Shown here one piece after another: positions 51,358-60,591 of a stretch of 64,000 bases of DNA. Source of the DNA: a virus. A program made the position numbers and the translations under genes. The notes beneath the pieces are model-generated. The model had not been told where the DNA came from. It saw only the letters and a program-made list of their open reading frames with translations, and made no database searches. The number at the start of each line of letters is the position of its first letter. Position 1 is the stretch's first letter. The stretch lies in IMG/VR virus record IMGVR_UViG_3300044630_006584. One strand, given 5' to 3'.

Positions 51358-51721
51358 GGGGATGTTAATGGCATTGACGTGCAACGGAAGTTCTTTGAGA
51401 TGATGCAGGCAGTGTTAGATGGAAACACTTTAAATACCTATCAAAACGATAAATGACAACTCTTACGTAGAGTCAGCTGAGTTTGCTCTTGCAGCCTAAG
51501 CTACGGGTCGGTACGACCTAGGAACAGAAAGTACCCAGAAGCTGTACACAGCAAACCCGAAGAAATCAGACATCTGATGGATTCACTGACTAACGCTGAA
51601 GTCAGATCAAAAAATACAGCAAAAACAGTTTGTACGGAGTTCTGATAAACCGATACTAAGCCTGTGAACGAGTCCTCTGCGCTTGTTGAGACGGACCCGG
51701 GTTCGACCCCCGGCATCTCCA
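51358..51721 (+). ncRNA. ssrA: tmRNA (one-piece); tag (A)DNSYVESAEFALAA at 51455-51499; CCA not encoded (CTA follows)
   Basis: Acceptor stem GGGGATG/CATCTCC-A with G3:U70, 5' GGCATTGAC, T-arm CCGGGTTCGACCCCCGG, ALAA-ending tag after ATAAAT. Confidence 0.93.
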
Positions 51722-51723
51722 CT

Positions 51724-51748
51724 AAAGGGAGCAATTTGCTCCCTTTTT
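51724..51748 (+). terminator. Rho-independent terminator after tmRNA
   Basis: AAAGGGAGCA-ATT-TGCTCCCTTTTT. Confidence 0.85.
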
Positions 51749-52225: not shown

Positions 52226-52257
52226 AAAAAAACCCTGAGATTATCTCAGGGTTTTTT
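52226..52257. terminator. Bidirectional terminator between convergent genes
   Basis: AAAAAAACCCTGAGA-TTA-TCTCAGGGTTTTTT. Confidence 0.85.
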
Positions 52258-52674
52258 GTTGCCTAAATATTTATATTTTTCTAATTTACGCCTGTAGTCT
52301 AATTCATACGTGTAGCAAATAACATCCTCTAGATTATCTTCCATATCGACCATTGAATTTATAAAGAAGAGTCTCATTGATTCTTTGATTAGAATTGCAG
52401 AAAGATCTTCTATAGATCCCTGCTCGAGCTCTTTAACCGGTATAAGGATAGCACCATTTGAGAAAGACATTATGGAATCAGAATCCCAGAAATCTATCTT
52501 ATTACAGTTATCCAAAAGAATATTATACATGGAACTATCTGTTTCCTCTACTAGTGAAATAGCAGAATTTACCTTATCCTCTAATTTCCCGTTGGTCCCA
52601 GATATCACTATCTGTGAGCCAGCATTCAAAGAAATTGACAACAACGCTAATGTAATTGGAATGTTAAGTTTCAT
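52246..52674 (-). CDS. Secreted/periplasmic hypothetical protein
   Basis: Signal peptide MKLNIPITLALLSISLNAGS. Confidence 0.55.
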   Translation of the reverse strand: MKLNIPITLALLSISLNAGSQIVISGTNGKLEDKVNSAISLVEETDSSMYNILLDNCNKIDFWDSDSIMSFSNGAILIPVKELEQGSIEDLSAILIKESMRLFFINSMVDMEDNLEDVICYTYELDYRRKLEKYKYLGNKKP

Positions 52675-52679
52675 GTGTA

Positions 52680-53237
52680 TTAAGCTTTTTCTTCCTCTGT
52701 GCCCTCAGTGTATTCCTCTGTGTAGTTCACATCAGCAGGTTCTTCGTACACATCAGCAACCGGTTCTTCATATGGTTCTACCACAGGCTCGTTATGAAAA
52801 GCTACAGGCTCCTCCACTACTGGCTCAGAAACAACCTCTTCTTTTCTTATAATTATAATCGGCTCCTGAGGAGGTCTTGGAGTTGTTGGATACTCGGTAA
52901 CGCTAGATAGGCTACTTCCATCCTCCTCGTCAACCTTTTGGATTAACATCTTGTCTCTGTCTTCTGAATTGAACCAATAGTCAACTACTTTGTTTAGGTT
53001 ACCAACAAAGGCTCCAAACAGGATCAGAAGCATTTCTTTCCAGTTTTCTGCTATTTCCAATTGGAACATAACTGCCATATTGATACCGAAAATAATAAAG
53101 AAGAACAAGAACAATACTATCCCTGTAATTCTCCATCTGTTTGCCTGCATCTGTTGTAACATGTAGTAGAAACGGTTTTTGTCCTCTACCTTTACATAAG
53201 GCGCTTCTTGAAATAACATCCTTTTTAATCTGCTCAT
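52680..53237 (-). CDS. Two-TM membrane protein with acidic Pro-rich tail (holin-like motif)
   Basis: Two TM helices ending LLILFGAFVGNLNKVVDYWFNS; EEPVA repeats. Confidence 0.6.
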   Translation of the reverse strand: MSRLKRMLFQEAPYVKVEDKNRFYYMLQQMQANRWRITGIVLFLFFFIIFGINMAVMFQLEIAENWKEMLLILFGAFVGNLNKVVDYWFNSEDRDKMLIQKVDEEDGSSLSSVTEYPTTPRPPQEPIIIIRKEEVVSEPVVEEPVAFHNEPVVEPYEEPVADVYEEPADVNYTEEYTEGTEEEKA

Positions 53238-53246
53238 TTTTTTAAT

Positions 53247-53933
53247 TTATTTTTCTTCTTTGCTAGGGGATGACCCGTACTTAACACCGAGAATAGTTCC
53301 AACTATACTGAAACTGTTTGTTAACAGGATACCGAACATATTACTCCAGGTGGAGCCTATAATATCAGTGTCCATCCCTATTGTCATAGAGTAAACATAA
53401 ATTCCAGTAGTTATTGTCCCTACACCGATGATTACATATAGAGCAACCCTAACAATATTATTTATTAACTCAAATTGAGTTTTCTTTTGGATTAGGTCCA
53501 GGTTGTTTTCCGCTTCTTTCTTAGCGTTTTCTGCAATGACTCTTGCTTGTTCGGATTGTTTCATAGCCTCAATAAGCTCAGCCCCTATCTTTTCATTTTC
53601 TTTTTTCCATTCAAGAAGTTCTGAGTTTTGGCTTTCAATTTGATTCTTTTGGTCCTCCATACTTGTTAAAGTATTCTGGAGTTCCTCCATCATTCTTTGA
53701 TTTTCCTCGTTTAACTCAGTTAAGTCTTTGTTCTGAACTTGTACCTGTTTAGTTATCTCCAAACGTTTACGTCTAGTTAGCCCATCCTTTTCAATACAAC
53801 TTTTAAGATACTCCTTAAACTCTTCGTCGTCTTGAGCGTCTATCAATTTAGTGATATTACCTTCAAGACCAATGTTCTTGGTCTTAAAAGTTTCAAGCAA
53901 TATCTTCTTTGTATCTTTATCTAAAACAATCAT
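53247..53933 (-). CDS. Coiled-coil protein with two C-terminal TM helices
   Basis: Long heptad region, then VALYVIIGVGTITTGIYVY and MFGILLTNSFSIVGTILGV. Confidence 0.65.
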   Translation of the reverse strand: MIVLDKDTKKILLETFKTKNIGLEGNITKLIDAQDDEEFKEYLKSCIEKDGLTRRKRLEITKQVQVQNKDLTELNEENQRMMEELQNTLTSMEDQKNQIESQNSELLEWKKENEKIGAELIEAMKQSEQARVIAENAKKEAENNLDLIQKKTQFELINNIVRVALYVIIGVGTITTGIYVYSMTIGMDTDIIGSTWSNMFGILLTNSFSIVGTILGVKYGSSPSKEEK

Positions 53934-54364
53934 TACTTATAAACTTTGAAAGGAGCAGTTCTATTTCTATATCCGTCGTAGTCCTTTTTAAATTCCTCGA
54001 GTCTTGGCTCGATATCATCGGACTTAATAATCCAAAACTGAGCACCTGCCTGAAGAGCTTTAGCTTGTTCTTCAGGTTCGTTACTTGAAGAGATGATACC
54101 AATTACTACGTGGTTACCATATTCAAAGTTAACCTTACGTATAAGCTCTATACCATCAAAGGATGAACCTATAATGTTTAAATCCACAAAAACACACTCG
54201 GGTCTTCCGTTTGGATCTTTTTGCCAGTCAGCAAATAGCTTGGCAGCTTCATCAGAGCTATTTAAACTCTTCAATGACAGTGTAATGTCCAGCAGTGAGC
54301 AGCTATCTTCAAAAACTAGATGAAAAAGATTTTCATCGTCGACTAATAAAATTGAATCTATCAT
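53933..54364 (-). CDS. Single-domain response regulator (receiver only)
   Basis: LLVDD, phospho-acceptor VFVDLN, FDG, IISSS, conserved Lys in WIIKSDD. Confidence 0.88.
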   Translation of the reverse strand: MIDSILLVDDENLFHLVFEDSCSLLDITLSLKSLNSSDEAAKLFADWQKDPNGRPECVFVDLNIIGSSFDGIELIRKVNFEYGNHVVIGIISSSNEPEEQAKALQAGAQFWIIKSDDIEPRLEEFKKDYDGYRNRTAPFKVYK

Positions 54365-54372
54365 TTTTTTCT

Positions 54373-55695
54373 TTATTTTATTTTTATTTTCATCCTGGTC
54401 CCACTTTCAATTTTTTCACAACTCAATTTAAAACCATGTTCTTCTAATATTGCAACACATATGTTCAATCCAAGACCCTTCTCGTCACCAGTGACATCAG
54501 CCTTCTTTGAATATTTTGTTAAATGTTTTTCAAATTGTTTTTGTGAGAATCCTCTGCCGTTGTCCTCAACTATTAAATATTCTTCCTCGTTATATATTTT
54601 AACCTTTTTAGATTCGCTATCGTTATATGACAAGCCATTCTTAATTAAGTTCTCAACCGCGTTACAGAATAAAGTCTCATTTACTTCCAGGTCACCCAAG
54701 TTAGCTATCTCAACCTGTGAACTATATGAATTTGGTGATACGTATTTCCAAATCAAATCTTTAGCGTTAACCACAGATTTATTTAATACAACATTTTGTT
54801 TAACAAGATTAGTGAATTCATATACACTCTTATAAACTCTCTGGGTATGACTCAATCCCTCTTTAACCATCTTAAGTGCCCCTTCGATCTTTAATCTTTG
54901 GATGTCCTCAGCGGTTAATCTTTTTTCTAATGAACTAATACCCCTTGGCATATATGTGTTGATACCTGAGTGCATGTCATGCCGAATGATTCTTGCCGCA
55001 TGCTCCAAATAGCTGTTCTTCTTAGCAATATCACTAATCTGTTGTTCAATTTCAACATCTTGTACATTTATTCTTTTTCTCTGTAAAACAACAGCTAACA
55101 TTAAACCGAACAAAACTAAAACACCTAAAGAGCTATAAAGATATTTCTTTAAGGTTTCTCTTTCTTTTTCTAAATCAGTTTTCTCGTGTATTAAGTTTCC
55201 ATTCTCATCTGTTAAGTCACCAGTCTCCAAAGTTAAACCGATAATATTCTTTTCTTTACCTAATGAACCGATTGTATTTTCTTTGGATTTAATAAGTTCT
55301 TCATTTCTAACCGCTTGAGCCAATAGTGAATCTCGCTCAGCAGTAAGTTTAGCAAGTTTATTATCAATTTGAGCTAATATATTTTTCAAATTTTCTTTAG
55401 GTAAATCACTATATGAATTTGGTAAATCTTCCATGAATTTAACATCCTCAGTGATACTTGCTAAATCCCCCGCTGAAAGTTTAGTGACATCAACAGGTTC
55501 TGGCTCTGGTTCTGGAGAAACCCAAGTGGTAATAATTTCTTGTATACTCATAGCAGAAACTTGTAAAGTATCCAGATCATCATTTGTCCACGATGTGTCT
55601 ATCGCATCAACGATAGTATCTTTATAACTAACTTCTTGCGAATATGAACTTGATGTTACAAGGATAGCTGAAAGTAAGAGTATCATCTTTTTCAT
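54373..55695 (-). CDS. Sensor histidine kinase (signal peptide, extracytoplasmic coiled coil, 1 TM)
   Basis: H-box RIIRHDMHSG, N-box ENLIKNGLSY, G1 EDNGRG, G2 GLGLNIC. Confidence 0.88.
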   Translation of the reverse strand: MKKMILLLSAILVTSSSYSQEVSYKDTIVDAIDTSWTNDDLDTLQVSAMSIQEIITTWVSPEPEPEPVDVTKLSAGDLASITEDVKFMEDLPNSYSDLPKENLKNILAQIDNKLAKLTAERDSLLAQAVRNEELIKSKENTIGSLGKEKNIIGLTLETGDLTDENGNLIHEKTDLEKERETLKKYLYSSLGVLVLFGLMLAVVLQRKRINVQDVEIEQQISDIAKKNSYLEHAARIIRHDMHSGINTYMPRGISSLEKRLTAEDIQRLKIEGALKMVKEGLSHTQRVYKSVYEFTNLVKQNVVLNKSVVNAKDLIWKYVSPNSYSSQVEIANLGDLEVNETLFCNAVENLIKNGLSYNDSESKKVKIYNEEEYLIVEDNGRGFSQKQFEKHLTKYSKKADVTGDEKGLGLNICVAILEEHGFKLSCEKIESGTRMKIKIK

Positions 55696-56297
55696 TTCTT
55701 TAATAAGTTTTTATTTTTCCAAATCCTTTGTTCATATAATCTAAGCTCTTTTTCAAAATCTTTAAATTGAATACCTTTAAAATAGTCAACAGCGGGGTAA
55801 TATTCTTGATTATATTGTTTTTTTAATTCATTCCAATATTCATATTCCTTTGGAGTCATTCTAATCAATTGAATTGTTTCTCCATAATCAATGCTGGTCA
55901 TGTTGTAATCGTCTAGGTTTATGAAGTAGATGGAATTGTAAGGTGGGATTGTGTATACCAAACTTGGTCCAGCCGCCAACTCAAATAATATAAGATTAAT
56001 TTCATCCGCCCATTTGTAAGTTGTGTCAGCAACATATTGAATACTATCAACCGTACCGTTAAGTTTAGTTACCGCGTTAGTTAAACTGTCAATCTTTTTA
56101 TTTTGTGCCAGTATTTTTTTATTCTGTTCTCTTATAATTTTTCTTTGAGTATCGATTACCTTATTAACATCTAAAGATTGCTTGATAGTTAAAATAACAA
56201 CAGAGTCACCCTTATAGATTGTTTGAATTGGGTATTTTAACTGTCCCGTAGTAACAGCGGAAATCATTAAAAAGATTAAGGTTATTAGTGTTTTCAT
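55692..56297 (-). CDS. Secreted coiled-coil protein
   Basis: Signal peptide MKTLITLIFLMISAVTTG; heptad region; overlaps both kinase genes. Confidence 0.6.
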   Translation of the reverse strand: MKTLITLIFLMISAVTTGQLKYPIQTIYKGDSVVILTIKQSLDVNKVIDTQRKIIREQNKKILAQNKKIDSLTNAVTKLNGTVDSIQYVADTTYKWADEINLILFELAAGPSLVYTIPPYNSIYFINLDDYNMTSIDYGETIQLIRMTPKEYEYWNELKKQYNQEYYPAVDYFKGIQFKDFEKELRLYEQRIWKNKNLLKK

Positions 56298-57883
56298 TTG
56301 AATTTAATTTTCATTTTAGTTCCTATTTCGTTTTTCTCACACGTAATTTGAAACTTATGTTCTTCCAAAATTGCCACACAAATATTTAATCCTAAACCAG
56401 TCCCTGATTCTTTCTGACCCTCTTTTCTTGTGTAAGGCTTAGATAAATGATTAAAATCATCCTGGGTAATTCCTCTACCGTTATCCTGTATATAGATTGT
56501 GTTTTCGTCTGAATAGAGCTTAACGAATTTTGAATCCGAATCGTTATATTTTAAACCATTTCTGATCAGGTTGTCTAGTGCAGTACAGAACAGAGGCTCG
56601 TTTACTTCTATGATTGGTAGAGTGTCGTCTAGTATAACCTGACTAATGTAAGCTGTAGATGACAGATAATCATGCAGTATGTACTTAATGCTGCATTCAG
56701 CTTTATTCAGAACAACATCCTTTTTAACCAGATTGGTGAACTCGTAAACACCTTTATAAACTTTCTGAGAATGTTTAAGACCCTCCTTAATCATTTTAAG
56801 TGGGGCTTCGATTTTAAGATTAGTAATATCCTCTTGTGTCAATCTCCTTTCCAATGAGTTAACACCTCTTGGCATATAAGTGTTAATCCCGGAATGCATA
56901 TCATGTCTTAGTATTTTAGCGGCGTGTTCTAAATAAGTGTTTTTCTTTTCAATCTCCTTTTTTTGTTCGTAAGATTGAGTGACGTCTGTTGCAATTTTCA
57001 TAACACGATAAATCTTACCGTCAGTGCCAATAATAGGATTGTAAGTGGCTTGTAAATAAACTAAAGACCCATCTTTTTTAACTCTAGAGATCTCACCAGA
57101 AAATAATATACCTCCCCTTAATTTTTTCCAAAAAAGAGAATAGTCTTCACTTTTTTCATATTCAGCATCTACAAAAATTCTATGATGCTTTCCAACTACC
57201 TCATCCTGTGAAGAATATCCCATAGTTTCTAAAAACAAATTATTAGCAAAAATAATATTACCGTCTAAATCAAACTCAATAACAGCATTAGATTTGTTTA
57301 TGGCGTTCATTCTGTTACGAATTTCCGCTTCTTTTTTCTTAAGCTCCGTGATGTCTTGCCTGATAGATAAAAAACCATCTAATCTCCCATCAGTTCCAAA
57401 TCTTGCCCTGATGTATGTGTCAACGTAATATAAACTGCCATCTTTGGCTTTATTAGTTACCACGTCATTCCATATCTCACCCTTCATAACGGTCTCGTAC
57501 ATTTTACCCCAATATCCGTCAGGTTGTGTGCCTGAATTAACTATTGAGTGGTCCTTACCAATTACTTCTTCAAGCTTCCAACCAGATACCTGTTCAAACT
57601 TATCATTAACATAAGTTATTTTACCTTTCCTATCTGTAATCGATACGATTGCCGCCTTATTAATAAATTTATCTGTCTCGTCAAGCTTTTTAGATTGGCT
57701 TTCCCTTACCTCTCTGATTATTAAGTAAAAGAGGGGTACGAAAAGAAGGAAGCAGGAGTATTCTATTCCCCTAGTTAATCTTGTTGACTCAATAATCTCA
57801 AATAAAACTGCTGTTTTAATAATAAAAAAAACAGACATGATTAATGAGCTGAGAAATAGATAGACTTTTGATTTTTTATTCAT
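56294..57883 (-). CDS. PAS-PAS sensor histidine kinase (2 N-terminal TM)
   Basis: PAS1 ITDRKGKITYVNDKF...KAKDGSLYYV, PAS2 IEFDLDGNIIFANNLF...KKDGSLVYLQATYNP, H-box KILRHDMHSG, DNLIRNGLKY, QDNGRG, GTGLGLNIC. Confidence 0.9.
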   Translation of the reverse strand: MNKKSKVYLFLSSLIMSVFFIIKTAVLFEIIESTRLTRGIEYSCFLLFVPLFYLIIREVRESQSKKLDETDKFINKAAIVSITDRKGKITYVNDKFEQVSGWKLEEVIGKDHSIVNSGTQPDGYWGKMYETVMKGEIWNDVVTNKAKDGSLYYVDTYIRARFGTDGRLDGFLSIRQDITELKKKEAEIRNRMNAINKSNAVIEFDLDGNIIFANNLFLETMGYSSQDEVVGKHHRIFVDAEYEKSEDYSLFWKKLRGGILFSGEISRVKKDGSLVYLQATYNPIIGTDGKIYRVMKIATDVTQSYEQKKEIEKKNTYLEHAAKILRHDMHSGINTYMPRGVNSLERRLTQEDITNLKIEAPLKMIKEGLKHSQKVYKGVYEFTNLVKKDVVLNKAECSIKYILHDYLSSTAYISQVILDDTLPIIEVNEPLFCTALDNLIRNGLKYNDSDSKFVKLYSDENTIYIQDNGRGITQDDFNHLSKPYTRKEGQKESGTGLGLNICVAILEEHKFQITCEKNEIGTKMKIKFK

Positions 57884-57941
57884 TGGATTATATATTCTGG
57901 ATTTTCAAAATAAGGGGTCCATAAATCCAATTTAGCCCAAT

Positions 57942-57971
57942 AAAAAAAAGGATCCCATAAGGATCCTTTTT
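57942..57971. terminator. Terminator (symmetrical) downstream of the 57993..58814 gene
   Basis: AAAAAAAAGGATCC-CATAA-GGATCCTTTTT. Confidence 0.75.
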
Positions 57972-57992
57972 CGTCTAAGTTGGTTGGATTTT

Positions 57993-58814: not shown

Positions 58815-58904
58815 GATTTATATATCCGATCAATTAATGAAAAATTATCTGAGATGTGTGTAAAAATAGTATTTTTCTGTTTAGCGGGAGAGGATATATA
58901 CAGT

Positions 58905-59708
58905 ATGTATTACGCTTATGAACACTACAAAAAAGACACTGATCAGATCTTTTATGTTGGGATAGGAAAAATAGATGAGGGCAAATATCAAAGAGCATAC
59001 TCCCTCGCGAAAAGAAACCCACATTGGCACGCCACTGCCAAAAAATATGGATTTGATTACAAAATAGTTTTCGAATCCGAATCAAGGGAAGAGGTTTGCA
59101 ACAAAGAAATCGATCTGATTTTAAAATATGGAAGGAAGGATCTTGGAACAGGCCCACTAGTTAATAAAACAACCGGAGGAGAGAAGACGTTTAAAATGTC
59201 AAAGGATTCGATATTAAAAATTTTAGAAACGAAAAGAAAAAATGGGTCAATGGAGATAATTTCACAAAGAGCGAGAGAAAGAATGTTAACTAATAATCCA
59301 TGGAAGGGTAAAACTCATGATGGGTTCAACAAAAAGGAGGTTTATCAATACGAAGCATCGACTGGTGTTTTTGTTGAAAAATATAAATCTATAAAAAGTG
59401 CTACAAGTGCAATGGGATTTTCGTCTGATAAGGTCATCGGCAAATGTTTAAGAGGTGAGAATCAAACCGGAGGTGGATATATCTGGTACTACGAATACCA
59501 AGGCGAAAAAGTTGATCGAATAAGAAGAGGAATAGCTAAGTATCAGCTCCAGCCAGTTATTGAAGTCGATCAATATGGGAATATTATTAATGAATGGGAA
59601 TGTATTTCGGATGCAGCTCTAGCAGCTGGTGTTACGCCCTCCGCGACGAGCCAAGCAATCCGTAAAAATGTACTTTGCAAGGGAAGAAAATTCAAAATAA
59701 AAGCCTAG
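58905..59708 (+). mobile_element. Free-standing GIY-YIG homing endonuclease with two NUMOD1-like repeats
   Basis: YAYEH...FYVGIGK...RA; LVNKTTGGE; YKSIKSA and WECISDAA; probable start ATG 58905 after GATATATA 58893-58900. Confidence 0.8.
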
Positions 59709-59754: not shown

Positions 59755-60591
59755 TTACTTGAGCAAGTTATAAAACTTAGATGTTTTTTCAATTCTATCA
59801 GGTAGTCCATGTGTGCCACCATTTACTCTTTTGGTAACGGAAGTAATCGATGCTGCATCTACCCCCTTGTCGCACAAAGCCCAAAGATTGTTCTTTGAAA
59901 AAAACCATGCTGCTGACATGAGAGAATATTTAGTTGCAACTAGATCCGGGTTTGCCACGACATCGTCTTCAACTAATTTATCGAAAGCTTCGTAATTGCT
60001 TTTGCCAGTCAGCTGGATCGCCCCCCTCCCCTTATAGCGATAGCCGTCTCCTGAAGCCTCGTCACCATTACCCATTCTTGAGGAATAAACTCTATTCGCA
60101 ATTTTTTCGGGCTGTTTGGCGTAGGATTCACTAAGATTACCCGGGAAATATTTTCCGAATATTTTCTTAAGGCCATCAGCTGAGTAGTTCAAATTTTCTT
60201 GTAAAATCTTGAAGTTTCCCGATTCGTGTGCACATTGACCTAATATGTGGGCCAATCTAAGTGTGTTTGTAATTCCAAATTTCTTAGCCGTGTCTGGAAT
60301 TTGAGCGATTACAGCATCAGGAATATGACCTTTTAAAGCTGCCAATTTGAAATCACTTGCAGGAACTCCCACCACAGGAGCAGATTCAGCTACAGTATTT
60401 TCAACAGGTGCTATTCCTAATTTTTGAAATGTAGCAGCTCCGGCTATACCGTCAGCAGCCAATCCCATTTTAGCTTGCCATTCTTTAAGGACTTTCTCAG
60501 TGCCTGGACCGAAATTACCATCCGCGGTAATTCCCAATGCGGTCTGAAGTTTAACAACCTCAGGACCTTTAGAACCTAGTTTAAGTAACAT
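59755..60591 (-). CDS. Endolysin: peptidoglycan-binding domain + GH19 catalytic domain
   Basis: LKLGSKG..V..LQ..LGI.ADG.FG..T...WQ; LAHILGQCAHES, ENLNYS, YKGRGAIQLTGKSNY, VNGGTHGL.DR. Confidence 0.9.
   Translation of the reverse strand: MLLKLGSKGPEVVKLQTALGITADGNFGPGTEKVLKEWQAKMGLAADGIAGAATFQKLGIAPVENTVAESAPVVGVPASDFKLAALKGHIPDAVIAQIPDTAKKFGITNTLRLAHILGQCAHESGNFKILQENLNYSADGLKKIFGKYFPGNLSESYAKQPEKIANRVYSSRMGNGDEASGDGYRYKGRGAIQLTGKSNYEAFDKLVEDDVVANPDLVATKYSLMSAAWFFSKNNLWALCDKGVDAASITSVTKRVNGGTHGLPDRIEKTSKFYNLLK

Follow-up and report, generated by a model that had tools for sequence, protein, structure and literature searches.

We analysed 64,000 nucleotides of DNA from an uncultured, T4-like giant phage (IMG/VR record IMGVR_UViG_3300044630_006584; "the window" below means this whole stretch), in which seven minus-strand open reading frames (ORFs) at 52246-57883 encode two histidine kinases (HK1 and HK2), a stand-alone receiver (REC), a membrane hairpin protein (TM5) and three further secreted or membrane proteins (CC2, TM6 and SEC7). 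The reading to which we incline, and which on balance is probably correct given the domains, gene contexts and fusions described below, is that this operon gives the phage its own branched two-component pathway for signal-gated control of lysis timing. More tentatively, the system may belong to a new class of signal-gated lysis regulator, in which a hairpin set by a coiled coil is driven either by a fused PAS or GAF domain or by a phosphorylated receiver, the cues in this phage being of a redox and an envelope type. A preliminary description of the operon had treated all seven genes as the unit and had named no target process; only the core of kinase, receiver and TM5 proved to be conserved, and lysis is the process that it likely targets.

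Kinases of this module were found in more than 150 IMG/VR loci, and the order and direction of the three core genes (HK>REC>TM5) are fixed across loci, TM5 directly following REC in 140 of the 144 loci that bear a receiver gene. Counts were made on a non-redundant set of 79 loci, and because many loci come from related phages these counts are not independent. CC2 with HK2, TM6 and SEC7 are lineage-specific additions to this core, and what the window adds is the expanded form, with two kinases, a secreted partner, TM6 and SEC7. Five long records bear the module (203-385 kb, two of them at least 95% complete). All five encode T4-type gp23 and have just one kinase locus, and a single receiver is present in four of them. 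The 385-kb record (G005; loci L105/L106) is a more distant giant phage with a related kinase, no receiver and no detected GH19 homologue, and its kinase is thus an orphan.

HK1 (56294..57883, minus strand, as for all genes of the operon; 529 amino acids) is a membrane-anchored PAS-PAS histidine kinase with an N-terminal transmembrane (TM) segment, two PAS domains and a HATPase_c domain, recognised in Pfam as PAS_9/PAS_3/PAS and HATPase_c. Its DHp-CA core (residues 300-529, 56297-56986) aligns over the full length with that of HK853 (2c2a, 3dge), with which it shares the H, N, G1 and G2 boxes. HK2 (54373..55695; 440 amino acids) also carries HATPase_c, and the CA-domain model PF02518 scored 57 bits for HK1 and 45.9 bits for HK2, both above the cut-off; the kinase alignments show the N box as well as the DNGRG and GxGLGL motifs. 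The Pfam HisKA model matched neither kinase, because their H-box, RHDMHSGINTY, is too divergent. Of 222 related kinases, 221 keep this H-box unchanged or almost unchanged, the histidine of its RHD motif being invariant in them, and the cores of HK1 and HK2 are 60% identical (E value 2e-90), their sensor regions being unrelated. Across the kinase family the sensor region ahead of the H-box varies from about 100 to 500 residues. By sequence, then, HK1 and HK2 are paralogous class I histidine kinases with intact catalytic boxes. The domain calls made earlier for both kinases hold, the shared H-box singled out there is real, and the proposal of a paralogous pair served by the same receiver agrees with the conserved H-box and with the one, nearly invariant receiver described below.

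The two kinases would differ in what they sense. PAS1 of HK1 (approximately residues 72-197, 57293-57670) matches structures of PAS domains that bind flavin adenine dinucleotide (FAD): MmoS PAS-A (3ewk, 2e-30), Aer (8dik, 7e-18) and NifL (2gj3, 4e-13), and the matches to all three proteins span the whole domain. The NifL model TIGR02938 gave 114 bits, under its full-length cut-off, as expected of a match to the domain only. By sequence and fold membership PAS1 is an FAD-PAS of the MmoS/NifL/Aer type, which bears out the flavin-type PAS suggested by the preliminary description from its resemblance to Aer and NifL. PAS2 (approximately residues 200-305) was assigned with Pfam. HK2 was modelled with AlphaFold2 (model m0f1f1d423fad, mean predicted local distance difference test score, pLDDT, of 70). 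The model begins with a signal or anchor helix, which an acidic, disordered linker joins to three extracytoplasmic helices; one continuous helix then runs from the membrane into DHp with no HAMP domain, and a normal CA domain follows. The H-box histidine of the model lies within a long helix, and the HK2 sequence has a hydrophobic segment at residues 186-204.

CC2 (55692..56297; 201 amino acids), a secreted coiled-coil protein with a signal peptide, is the constant companion of the second kinase. Members of its family (F4) were found in about 60 loci, in each case between the two kinases and never without a second kinase, and no Pfam family matched it. A relationship between CC2 and the extracytoplasmic region of HK2 was considered and dropped, as comparison gave no meaningful similarity. 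Two kinases are present in 33 of the 79 non-redundant loci. A quick maximum-likelihood tree of kinase cores was built with IQ-TREE, leaving out kinases without the H-box pattern, cores shorter than 200 residues and duplicate sequences. One clade (Shimodaira-Hasegawa-like approximate likelihood ratio test, SH-aLRT, 98) held every PAS-type first kinase and the majority of single kinases, and no second kinase. This indicates that the two-kinase state is old and did not arise by recent duplication.

REC (53933..54364; 143 amino acids) is a CheY-like receiver, scoring 34 bits with PF00072 against a cut-off of 30.2. The domain scan found no domain in it besides PF00072, and hence no output or DNA-binding domain, as had been described before. 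Residues D9, D10, D61, S92-94 and K114 are invariant in the receiver alignment (A1), whose 20 most diverse sequences have a mean column identity of 83%; this is the Asp-Asp-Asp-Ser/Thr-Lys set that REC shares with the single-domain receivers CheY, Spo0F, DivK and CpdR, whose output is by protein contact. With the H-box and these phospho-acceptor residues kept, the earlier view of an intact, phage-borne two-component system is supported. REC is also the most conserved gene across loci (median identity 85%, versus about 60% for the kinase and TM5), its best 120 relatives are all 141-143 residues long, and among metagenome proteins it is represented by 3,865 clusters, on contigs of up to about 294 kb. 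An invariant H-box together with an invariant receiver points to an insulated cognate pair. Because REC has no DNA-binding domain and TM5 is its fixed partner, the sequences support an output of the pathway by protein-protein contact at the membrane and not by transcription, as the preliminary description had proposed.

The putative output partner, TM5 (53247..53933; 228 amino acids), directly follows REC. Its AlphaFold2 model (pLDDT 85.5) has a small N-terminal head and a long helix, residues 37-185, that continues into TM1, followed by a short loop and TM2. The topology is that of a two-TM hairpin with both termini inside; the coiled coil varies in length among relatives and TM2 is highly conserved. 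A profile of the juxtamembrane helix and hairpin of TM5 was run against 1.84 billion proteins and recovered 116 representative clusters, 46 of them with a TM5-type head and six fused to cytoplasmic sensors, namely a GAF domain (P0126), a PAS-PAS pair (P0162) or a single PAS domain (P0131, P0156, P0228 and P0229). The PAS domain of P0131 matches PAS1 of HK1 at 2e-45, which suggests that the same type of sensor can feed the hairpin either directly or through a kinase and a receiver. No kinase or receiver was found near the sensor-fused hairpins in the contexts that were recovered. These results suggest that the hairpin is a regulated effector and that TM5 is the likely target of REC. Kinase-receiver hybrid proteins occur in relatives, and a search with REC for receiver-hairpin fusions turned up only such hybrids.

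The link to lysis comes from gene context. Hairpin genes lie zero to five genes upstream of cell-wall hydrolases of five Pfam families. The PAS-PAS fusion P0162 (locus L171) is followed by a PG_binding_1 plus GH19 enzyme, the GAF fusion P0126 (L172) by GH19 and then a glucosaminidase, the PAS fusion P0228 (L173 and L174) by Amidase_2, and a divergent trio of kinase, receiver and hairpin (L175) by GH46; on one contig the PAS fusion P0156 has Peptidase_M15_3 directly adjacent on its downstream side. Between hairpin and lysin in L172 are genes for a 78-residue two-TM protein (holin-like), a coiled-coil protein with an N-terminal TM segment (i-spanin-like) and a lipoprotein (o-spanin-like), and the same kinds of genes (two-TM holin-like, coiled-coil, lipoproteins) are found in L171. 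The presence of a separate small holin-like gene beside the hairpin makes it likelier that TM5 is a regulator than that it is the sole holin. In L175 a caspase-like Peptidase_C14 gene (L175:3952-4917) lies between the hairpin gene and the GH46 enzyme.

For the module itself, a GH19 endolysin gene adjoins it in 30 of the 79 non-redundant loci and is within four genes in 46, in arrangements that vary between downstream co-directional and upstream divergent. In three of the four long genomes that have both genes, the sole GH19 gene is 0.8-1.7 kb from REC. The window contains an endolysin gene with PG_binding_1 and GH19 domains by Pfam (59755..60591, minus; phrog_181, 6e-71), on the same strand as the operon and 1.9 kb upstream of it. 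A homing-endonuclease-like gene (58854-59708, plus; NUMOD1, borderline score) lies between the two. Given that the lysin is directly beside the module in many relatives, this gene looks like an insertion that has split them.

A different end point for the pathway was weighed against these contexts. It might end at TM5 and control some other envelope process, such as membrane energetics, the exclusion of superinfecting phage or remodelling of the cell wall during assembly, the nearness of lysins merely reflecting the clustering of envelope-directed genes. We consider this unlikely, and several observations nevertheless count for it or otherwise weigh against lysis. None of the holin and antiholin families of Pfam, PHROGs and NCBIfam matched TM5, which so stands outside the known families, and a Foldseek search of its model against the PDB returned nothing below an E value of 8. 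No GH19 gene was found in the fetched flanks of 32 of the 79 non-redundant loci, which leaves about 40% of them with no lysin there, and in the fourth long genome (G006) the GH19 gene is 75 kb from REC; T4-like phages, moreover, often scatter their lysis genes. The endolysin in the window is not adjacent to the operon, being separated from it by the homing-endonuclease-like gene, one unknown gene and a terminator that stands between the operon and the endolysin side. When the small holin- and spanin-like proteins from other loci were used as tblastn queries, the 64-kb window gave no homologue. The hairpin gene P0153 (130 residues) directly follows COX1, CtaG, COX3, SURF1 and COX15 on a 13-kb contig, beside cytochrome oxidase genes and with no lysin nearby; this contig could be a prophage junction, a chimera or a truly different context. 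Loose clustering of envelope genes is, however, hard to uphold in view of the cassette-like contexts, in which hairpin genes sit in complete-looking lysis cassettes with holin-like two-TM proteins, spanin-like pairs and lysins of five families. Five related genomes were also searched for holin T (PF11031), without a match, and since control genomes were equally silent this result is uninformative.

The contact between REC and TM5 was also examined by complex prediction. For TM5(1-160) with REC, scores of 0.50, 0.01 and 0.51 were obtained in three runs, versus 0.01 for the best of three controls; the runs shared at least 82% of contacts, and partner pLDDT was at least 85. When this tool was calibrated, 58 of 80 solved complexes passed its mark, as did 2 of 110 mismatched pairs. 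Passes at 0.60 or less came from only 7 of the 80 solved complexes and from both of those mismatched pairs, and the tool classes a pass in this range as weak. The modelling thus gives weak support for a TM5-REC complex, and the low score and the failure of one run in three are to be set with the points against our interpretation.

A second explanation places the targets in the host. CheY and other single-domain receivers have protein targets of various kinds, and phosphorylated REC, or the kinases themselves, might act on host proteins of motility, gliding or host two-component pathways, with TM5 serving only to anchor or localise the relay. Conservation of the whole REC surface, to which the mean column identity given above attests, may reflect several partners, a conserved host protein among them. 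We nevertheless judge this explanation quite improbable. Fusion of the hairpin to PAS or GAF domains in contexts with no nearby kinase or receiver identifies it as an effector and no mere anchor, the invariant H-box and REC suggest an insulated pair, and over the whole genome a single kinase locus is found, with no more than one receiver.

Signal-gated control of lysis timing would then work as follows. Both kinases would phosphorylate REC at Asp61. HK1 would sense the redox or energy state of the host in the cytoplasm, through its FAD-type PAS domain and its second PAS domain, and HK2, with its small helical extracytoplasmic domain, would read an envelope or periplasmic cue together with CC2. 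Phosphorylated REC would act on the cytoplasmic head or the coiled coil of TM5, a presumed dimeric membrane hairpin, as synteny and the fusions suggest, and the coiled coil would carry the signal on to the hairpin, as it would have to in the one-protein PAS- and GAF-hairpin versions. The hairpin would work in the lysis pathway, to which gene context across lineages points, and TM5 would more probably regulate a separate small holin, in the manner of an antiholin or as a co-holin, than be the sole holin itself. In this way the phage could advance or delay lysis according to the redox or energy state of its host and an envelope cue, and TM6 and SEC7 would be envelope additions of particular lineages.

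Taken singly, the class I kinase, the CheY-like receiver and the FAD-type PAS domain are nothing unusual. The system that they form is unusual, and no description of the module was found in the literature that was searched. To our knowledge, the only well-understood sensory control of lysis timing is lysis inhibition of the T-even type. In T4, holin T is controlled by the antiholins RI and RIII, and ICP1 has a counterpart in TeaA/ArrA (PMC11413866, PMC7182436). The pathway proposed here would function most like these: T4 and ICP1 are lytic T4-type or large phages that sense a condition in the course of infection and tune the time of lysis post-translationally through membrane proteins of the lysis pathway. 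In T4 and ICP1, however, the antiholin is itself the sensor, the cue is superinfection and there is no kinase, receiver or phosphorylation, whereas the present system has a histidine-aspartate relay, sensors of redox and envelope type and an unrelated hairpin, and no components are shared.

Staphylococcus and Bacillus likewise link a two-component system, LytSR, to membrane proteins that resemble holins and antiholins, Cid/Lrg (PMC5717393). That system is cellular and LytR binds DNA and acts on transcription, whereas REC has no output domain and its link to TM5 would be by protein-protein contact. Assignment to the LytSR type was considered and rejected, as it calls for a LytTR DNA-binding regulator and REC has no DNA-binding domain. 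Homologues of Lrg and Cid may act as transporters. Compared with HK853 and the CheY-type receivers, the present pathway differs in its divergent H-box, in being encoded by a virus and in its new membrane hairpin partner. Compared with MmoS, NifL and Aer, it differs in the partner of the FAD-type PAS domain, which is a phage kinase or, in P0131, the hairpin itself.

The timing of lysis sets the burst size and fitness of a phage. If our interpretation is correct, this would be the first histidine-aspartate phosphorelay to control phage lysis post-translationally, and large environmental phages would compute the time of lysis from the metabolic and envelope state of the host. It would also define a new modular route from sensor to membrane effector, in which a PAS domain, a GAF domain or a receiver acts through a coiled coil on a hairpin. 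Given the abundance of the receiver in metagenomes (the 3,865 clusters noted above), such control could shape virus-driven turnover in natural waters, and a modular switch of this kind could serve as a tool for lysis.

It is highly improbable that the operon is host DNA joined to the phage by an assembly error, or that it was acquired recently, is decaying and serves the phage no purpose, and the sequence data, as far as they go, refute this. In its favour, cells are where two-component genes typically occur, and the operon runs against the strand of most genes of the window and is slightly lower in G+C content. Against it, the module is under strong purifying selection in more than 150 viral contigs and in near-complete T4-like genomes, bears the phage's own promoter-like motif, is nearly absent from 185,579 cellular species genomes and recurs, 98-100% identical and with the same flanking genes, in an independent contig. 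In that IMG/VR contig (L001/L081), identity is 92-100% over most of the operon. The cellular count comes from a scan with the receiver alignment of one genome per prokaryote species, which gave five close matches, all with the module and all on contigs of 2-89 kb from metagenome-assembled genomes (MAGs) of five different phyla. Such scattered short contigs have the pattern of mis-binned phage contigs. A mainly cellular distribution, which the preliminary description had named as an outcome that would overturn its account, is thus not what was found, with five MAG hits set against the viral loci.

The same description had held that complete phosphorelays are rare in lytic phages. This stands for cultured phages, as a nucleotide search of GenBank phages (50,697 records) gave no match to the module, and a protein search of the same phages gave only generic PAS and kinase matches in unrelated records. 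The nearest record (G001), a 39-kb fragment, lacks the cluster. The statement does not stand for metagenomic T4-like jumbo phages, in which the module is abundant. Besides the operon, the window holds genes for ribonucleotide reductase (RNR) and topoisomerase II, a Ro/TROVE-like gene and a transfer-messenger RNA (tmRNA) gene. None of eight proteins matched a defence model in PADLOC, and a reading of the operon as a defence system was dropped for that reason.

The layout of the operon was as described before, with all seven ORFs co-oriented and coupled, neighbours overlapping by 1-4 nucleotides or sitting 5-9 nucleotides apart. Its 5' border is a GC-rich hairpin with a T-run that ends the upstream gene (57941..57972, minus; a GGATCC..GGATCC stem followed by T8). 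At the other end is an intrinsic terminator (52227..52257) with a 14-pair stem set between A6 and T6; because runs of A and T flank the stem it can act on both strands, as had been supposed. The promoter-like motif AATATATAA (57888..57896, minus) ends 4 nucleotides before the HK1 start codon and is a member of RATATATAR, which occurs 14 times in the window where 6.6 would be expected; 12 of these copies lie on the coding strand just ahead of an ORF start. By its frequency and placement, this motif is a genuine phage promoter-like element and no chance match. It had been labelled a late-type octamer, and the label "late" is unsupported: RATATATAR is found ahead of nucleotide-metabolism genes too, and among the capsid genes of five relatives only one had a similar motif upstream and four had none. 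At other loci, RATATATAR or a T4-type octamer is present in 26 of 82 distinct regions upstream of the first kinase. An extra copy lies inside HK2 (54590-54598, minus), about 225 nucleotides upstream of the REC start, and may be a chance match in coding sequence or an internal promoter for REC and TM5.

The last two genes of the operon are variable among lineages. TM6 (52680..53237; 185 amino acids) has an acidic, proline-rich tail, and its family (F11) was found in 31 loci, always directly behind TM5. TM5 and TM6 had both been described as two-TM proteins, which is right for the TM5 hairpin and only in part for TM6, with one clear hydrophobic segment and one weaker. TM6 is holin-like in form only, and look-alikes of TM5 and TM6 in the atlas were unannotated viral clusters only. 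One metagenome protein (P0129, 157 residues) has about 60 TM6-like residues at its start, joined at a shared IAEN motif to the juxtamembrane helix and hairpin of TM5; it is either a real recombinant or a chimera of assembly or gene calling. SEC7 (52246..52674; 142 amino acids), a secreted protein with a signal peptide, is found in this phage lineage only. Its counterpart in L001/L081 is just 42-45% identical, versus 92-100% for the adjoining genes, which may reflect fast evolution or replacement of a cassette at the 3' end of the operon.

In all three predicted secreted proteins, HK2, CC2 and SEC7, a glutamine directly follows the likely site of signal-peptide cleavage (YS|Q, TG|Q and GS|Q, respectively). 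Glutamine as the first residue after cleavage is the "Q-rule" of Bacteroidetes, and these sequences hint at a Bacteroidota host. Just past the operon terminator lies the phage tmRNA gene (51358-51722, plus), whose tag peptide ends in ALAA and which has its own terminator at 51724-51746.

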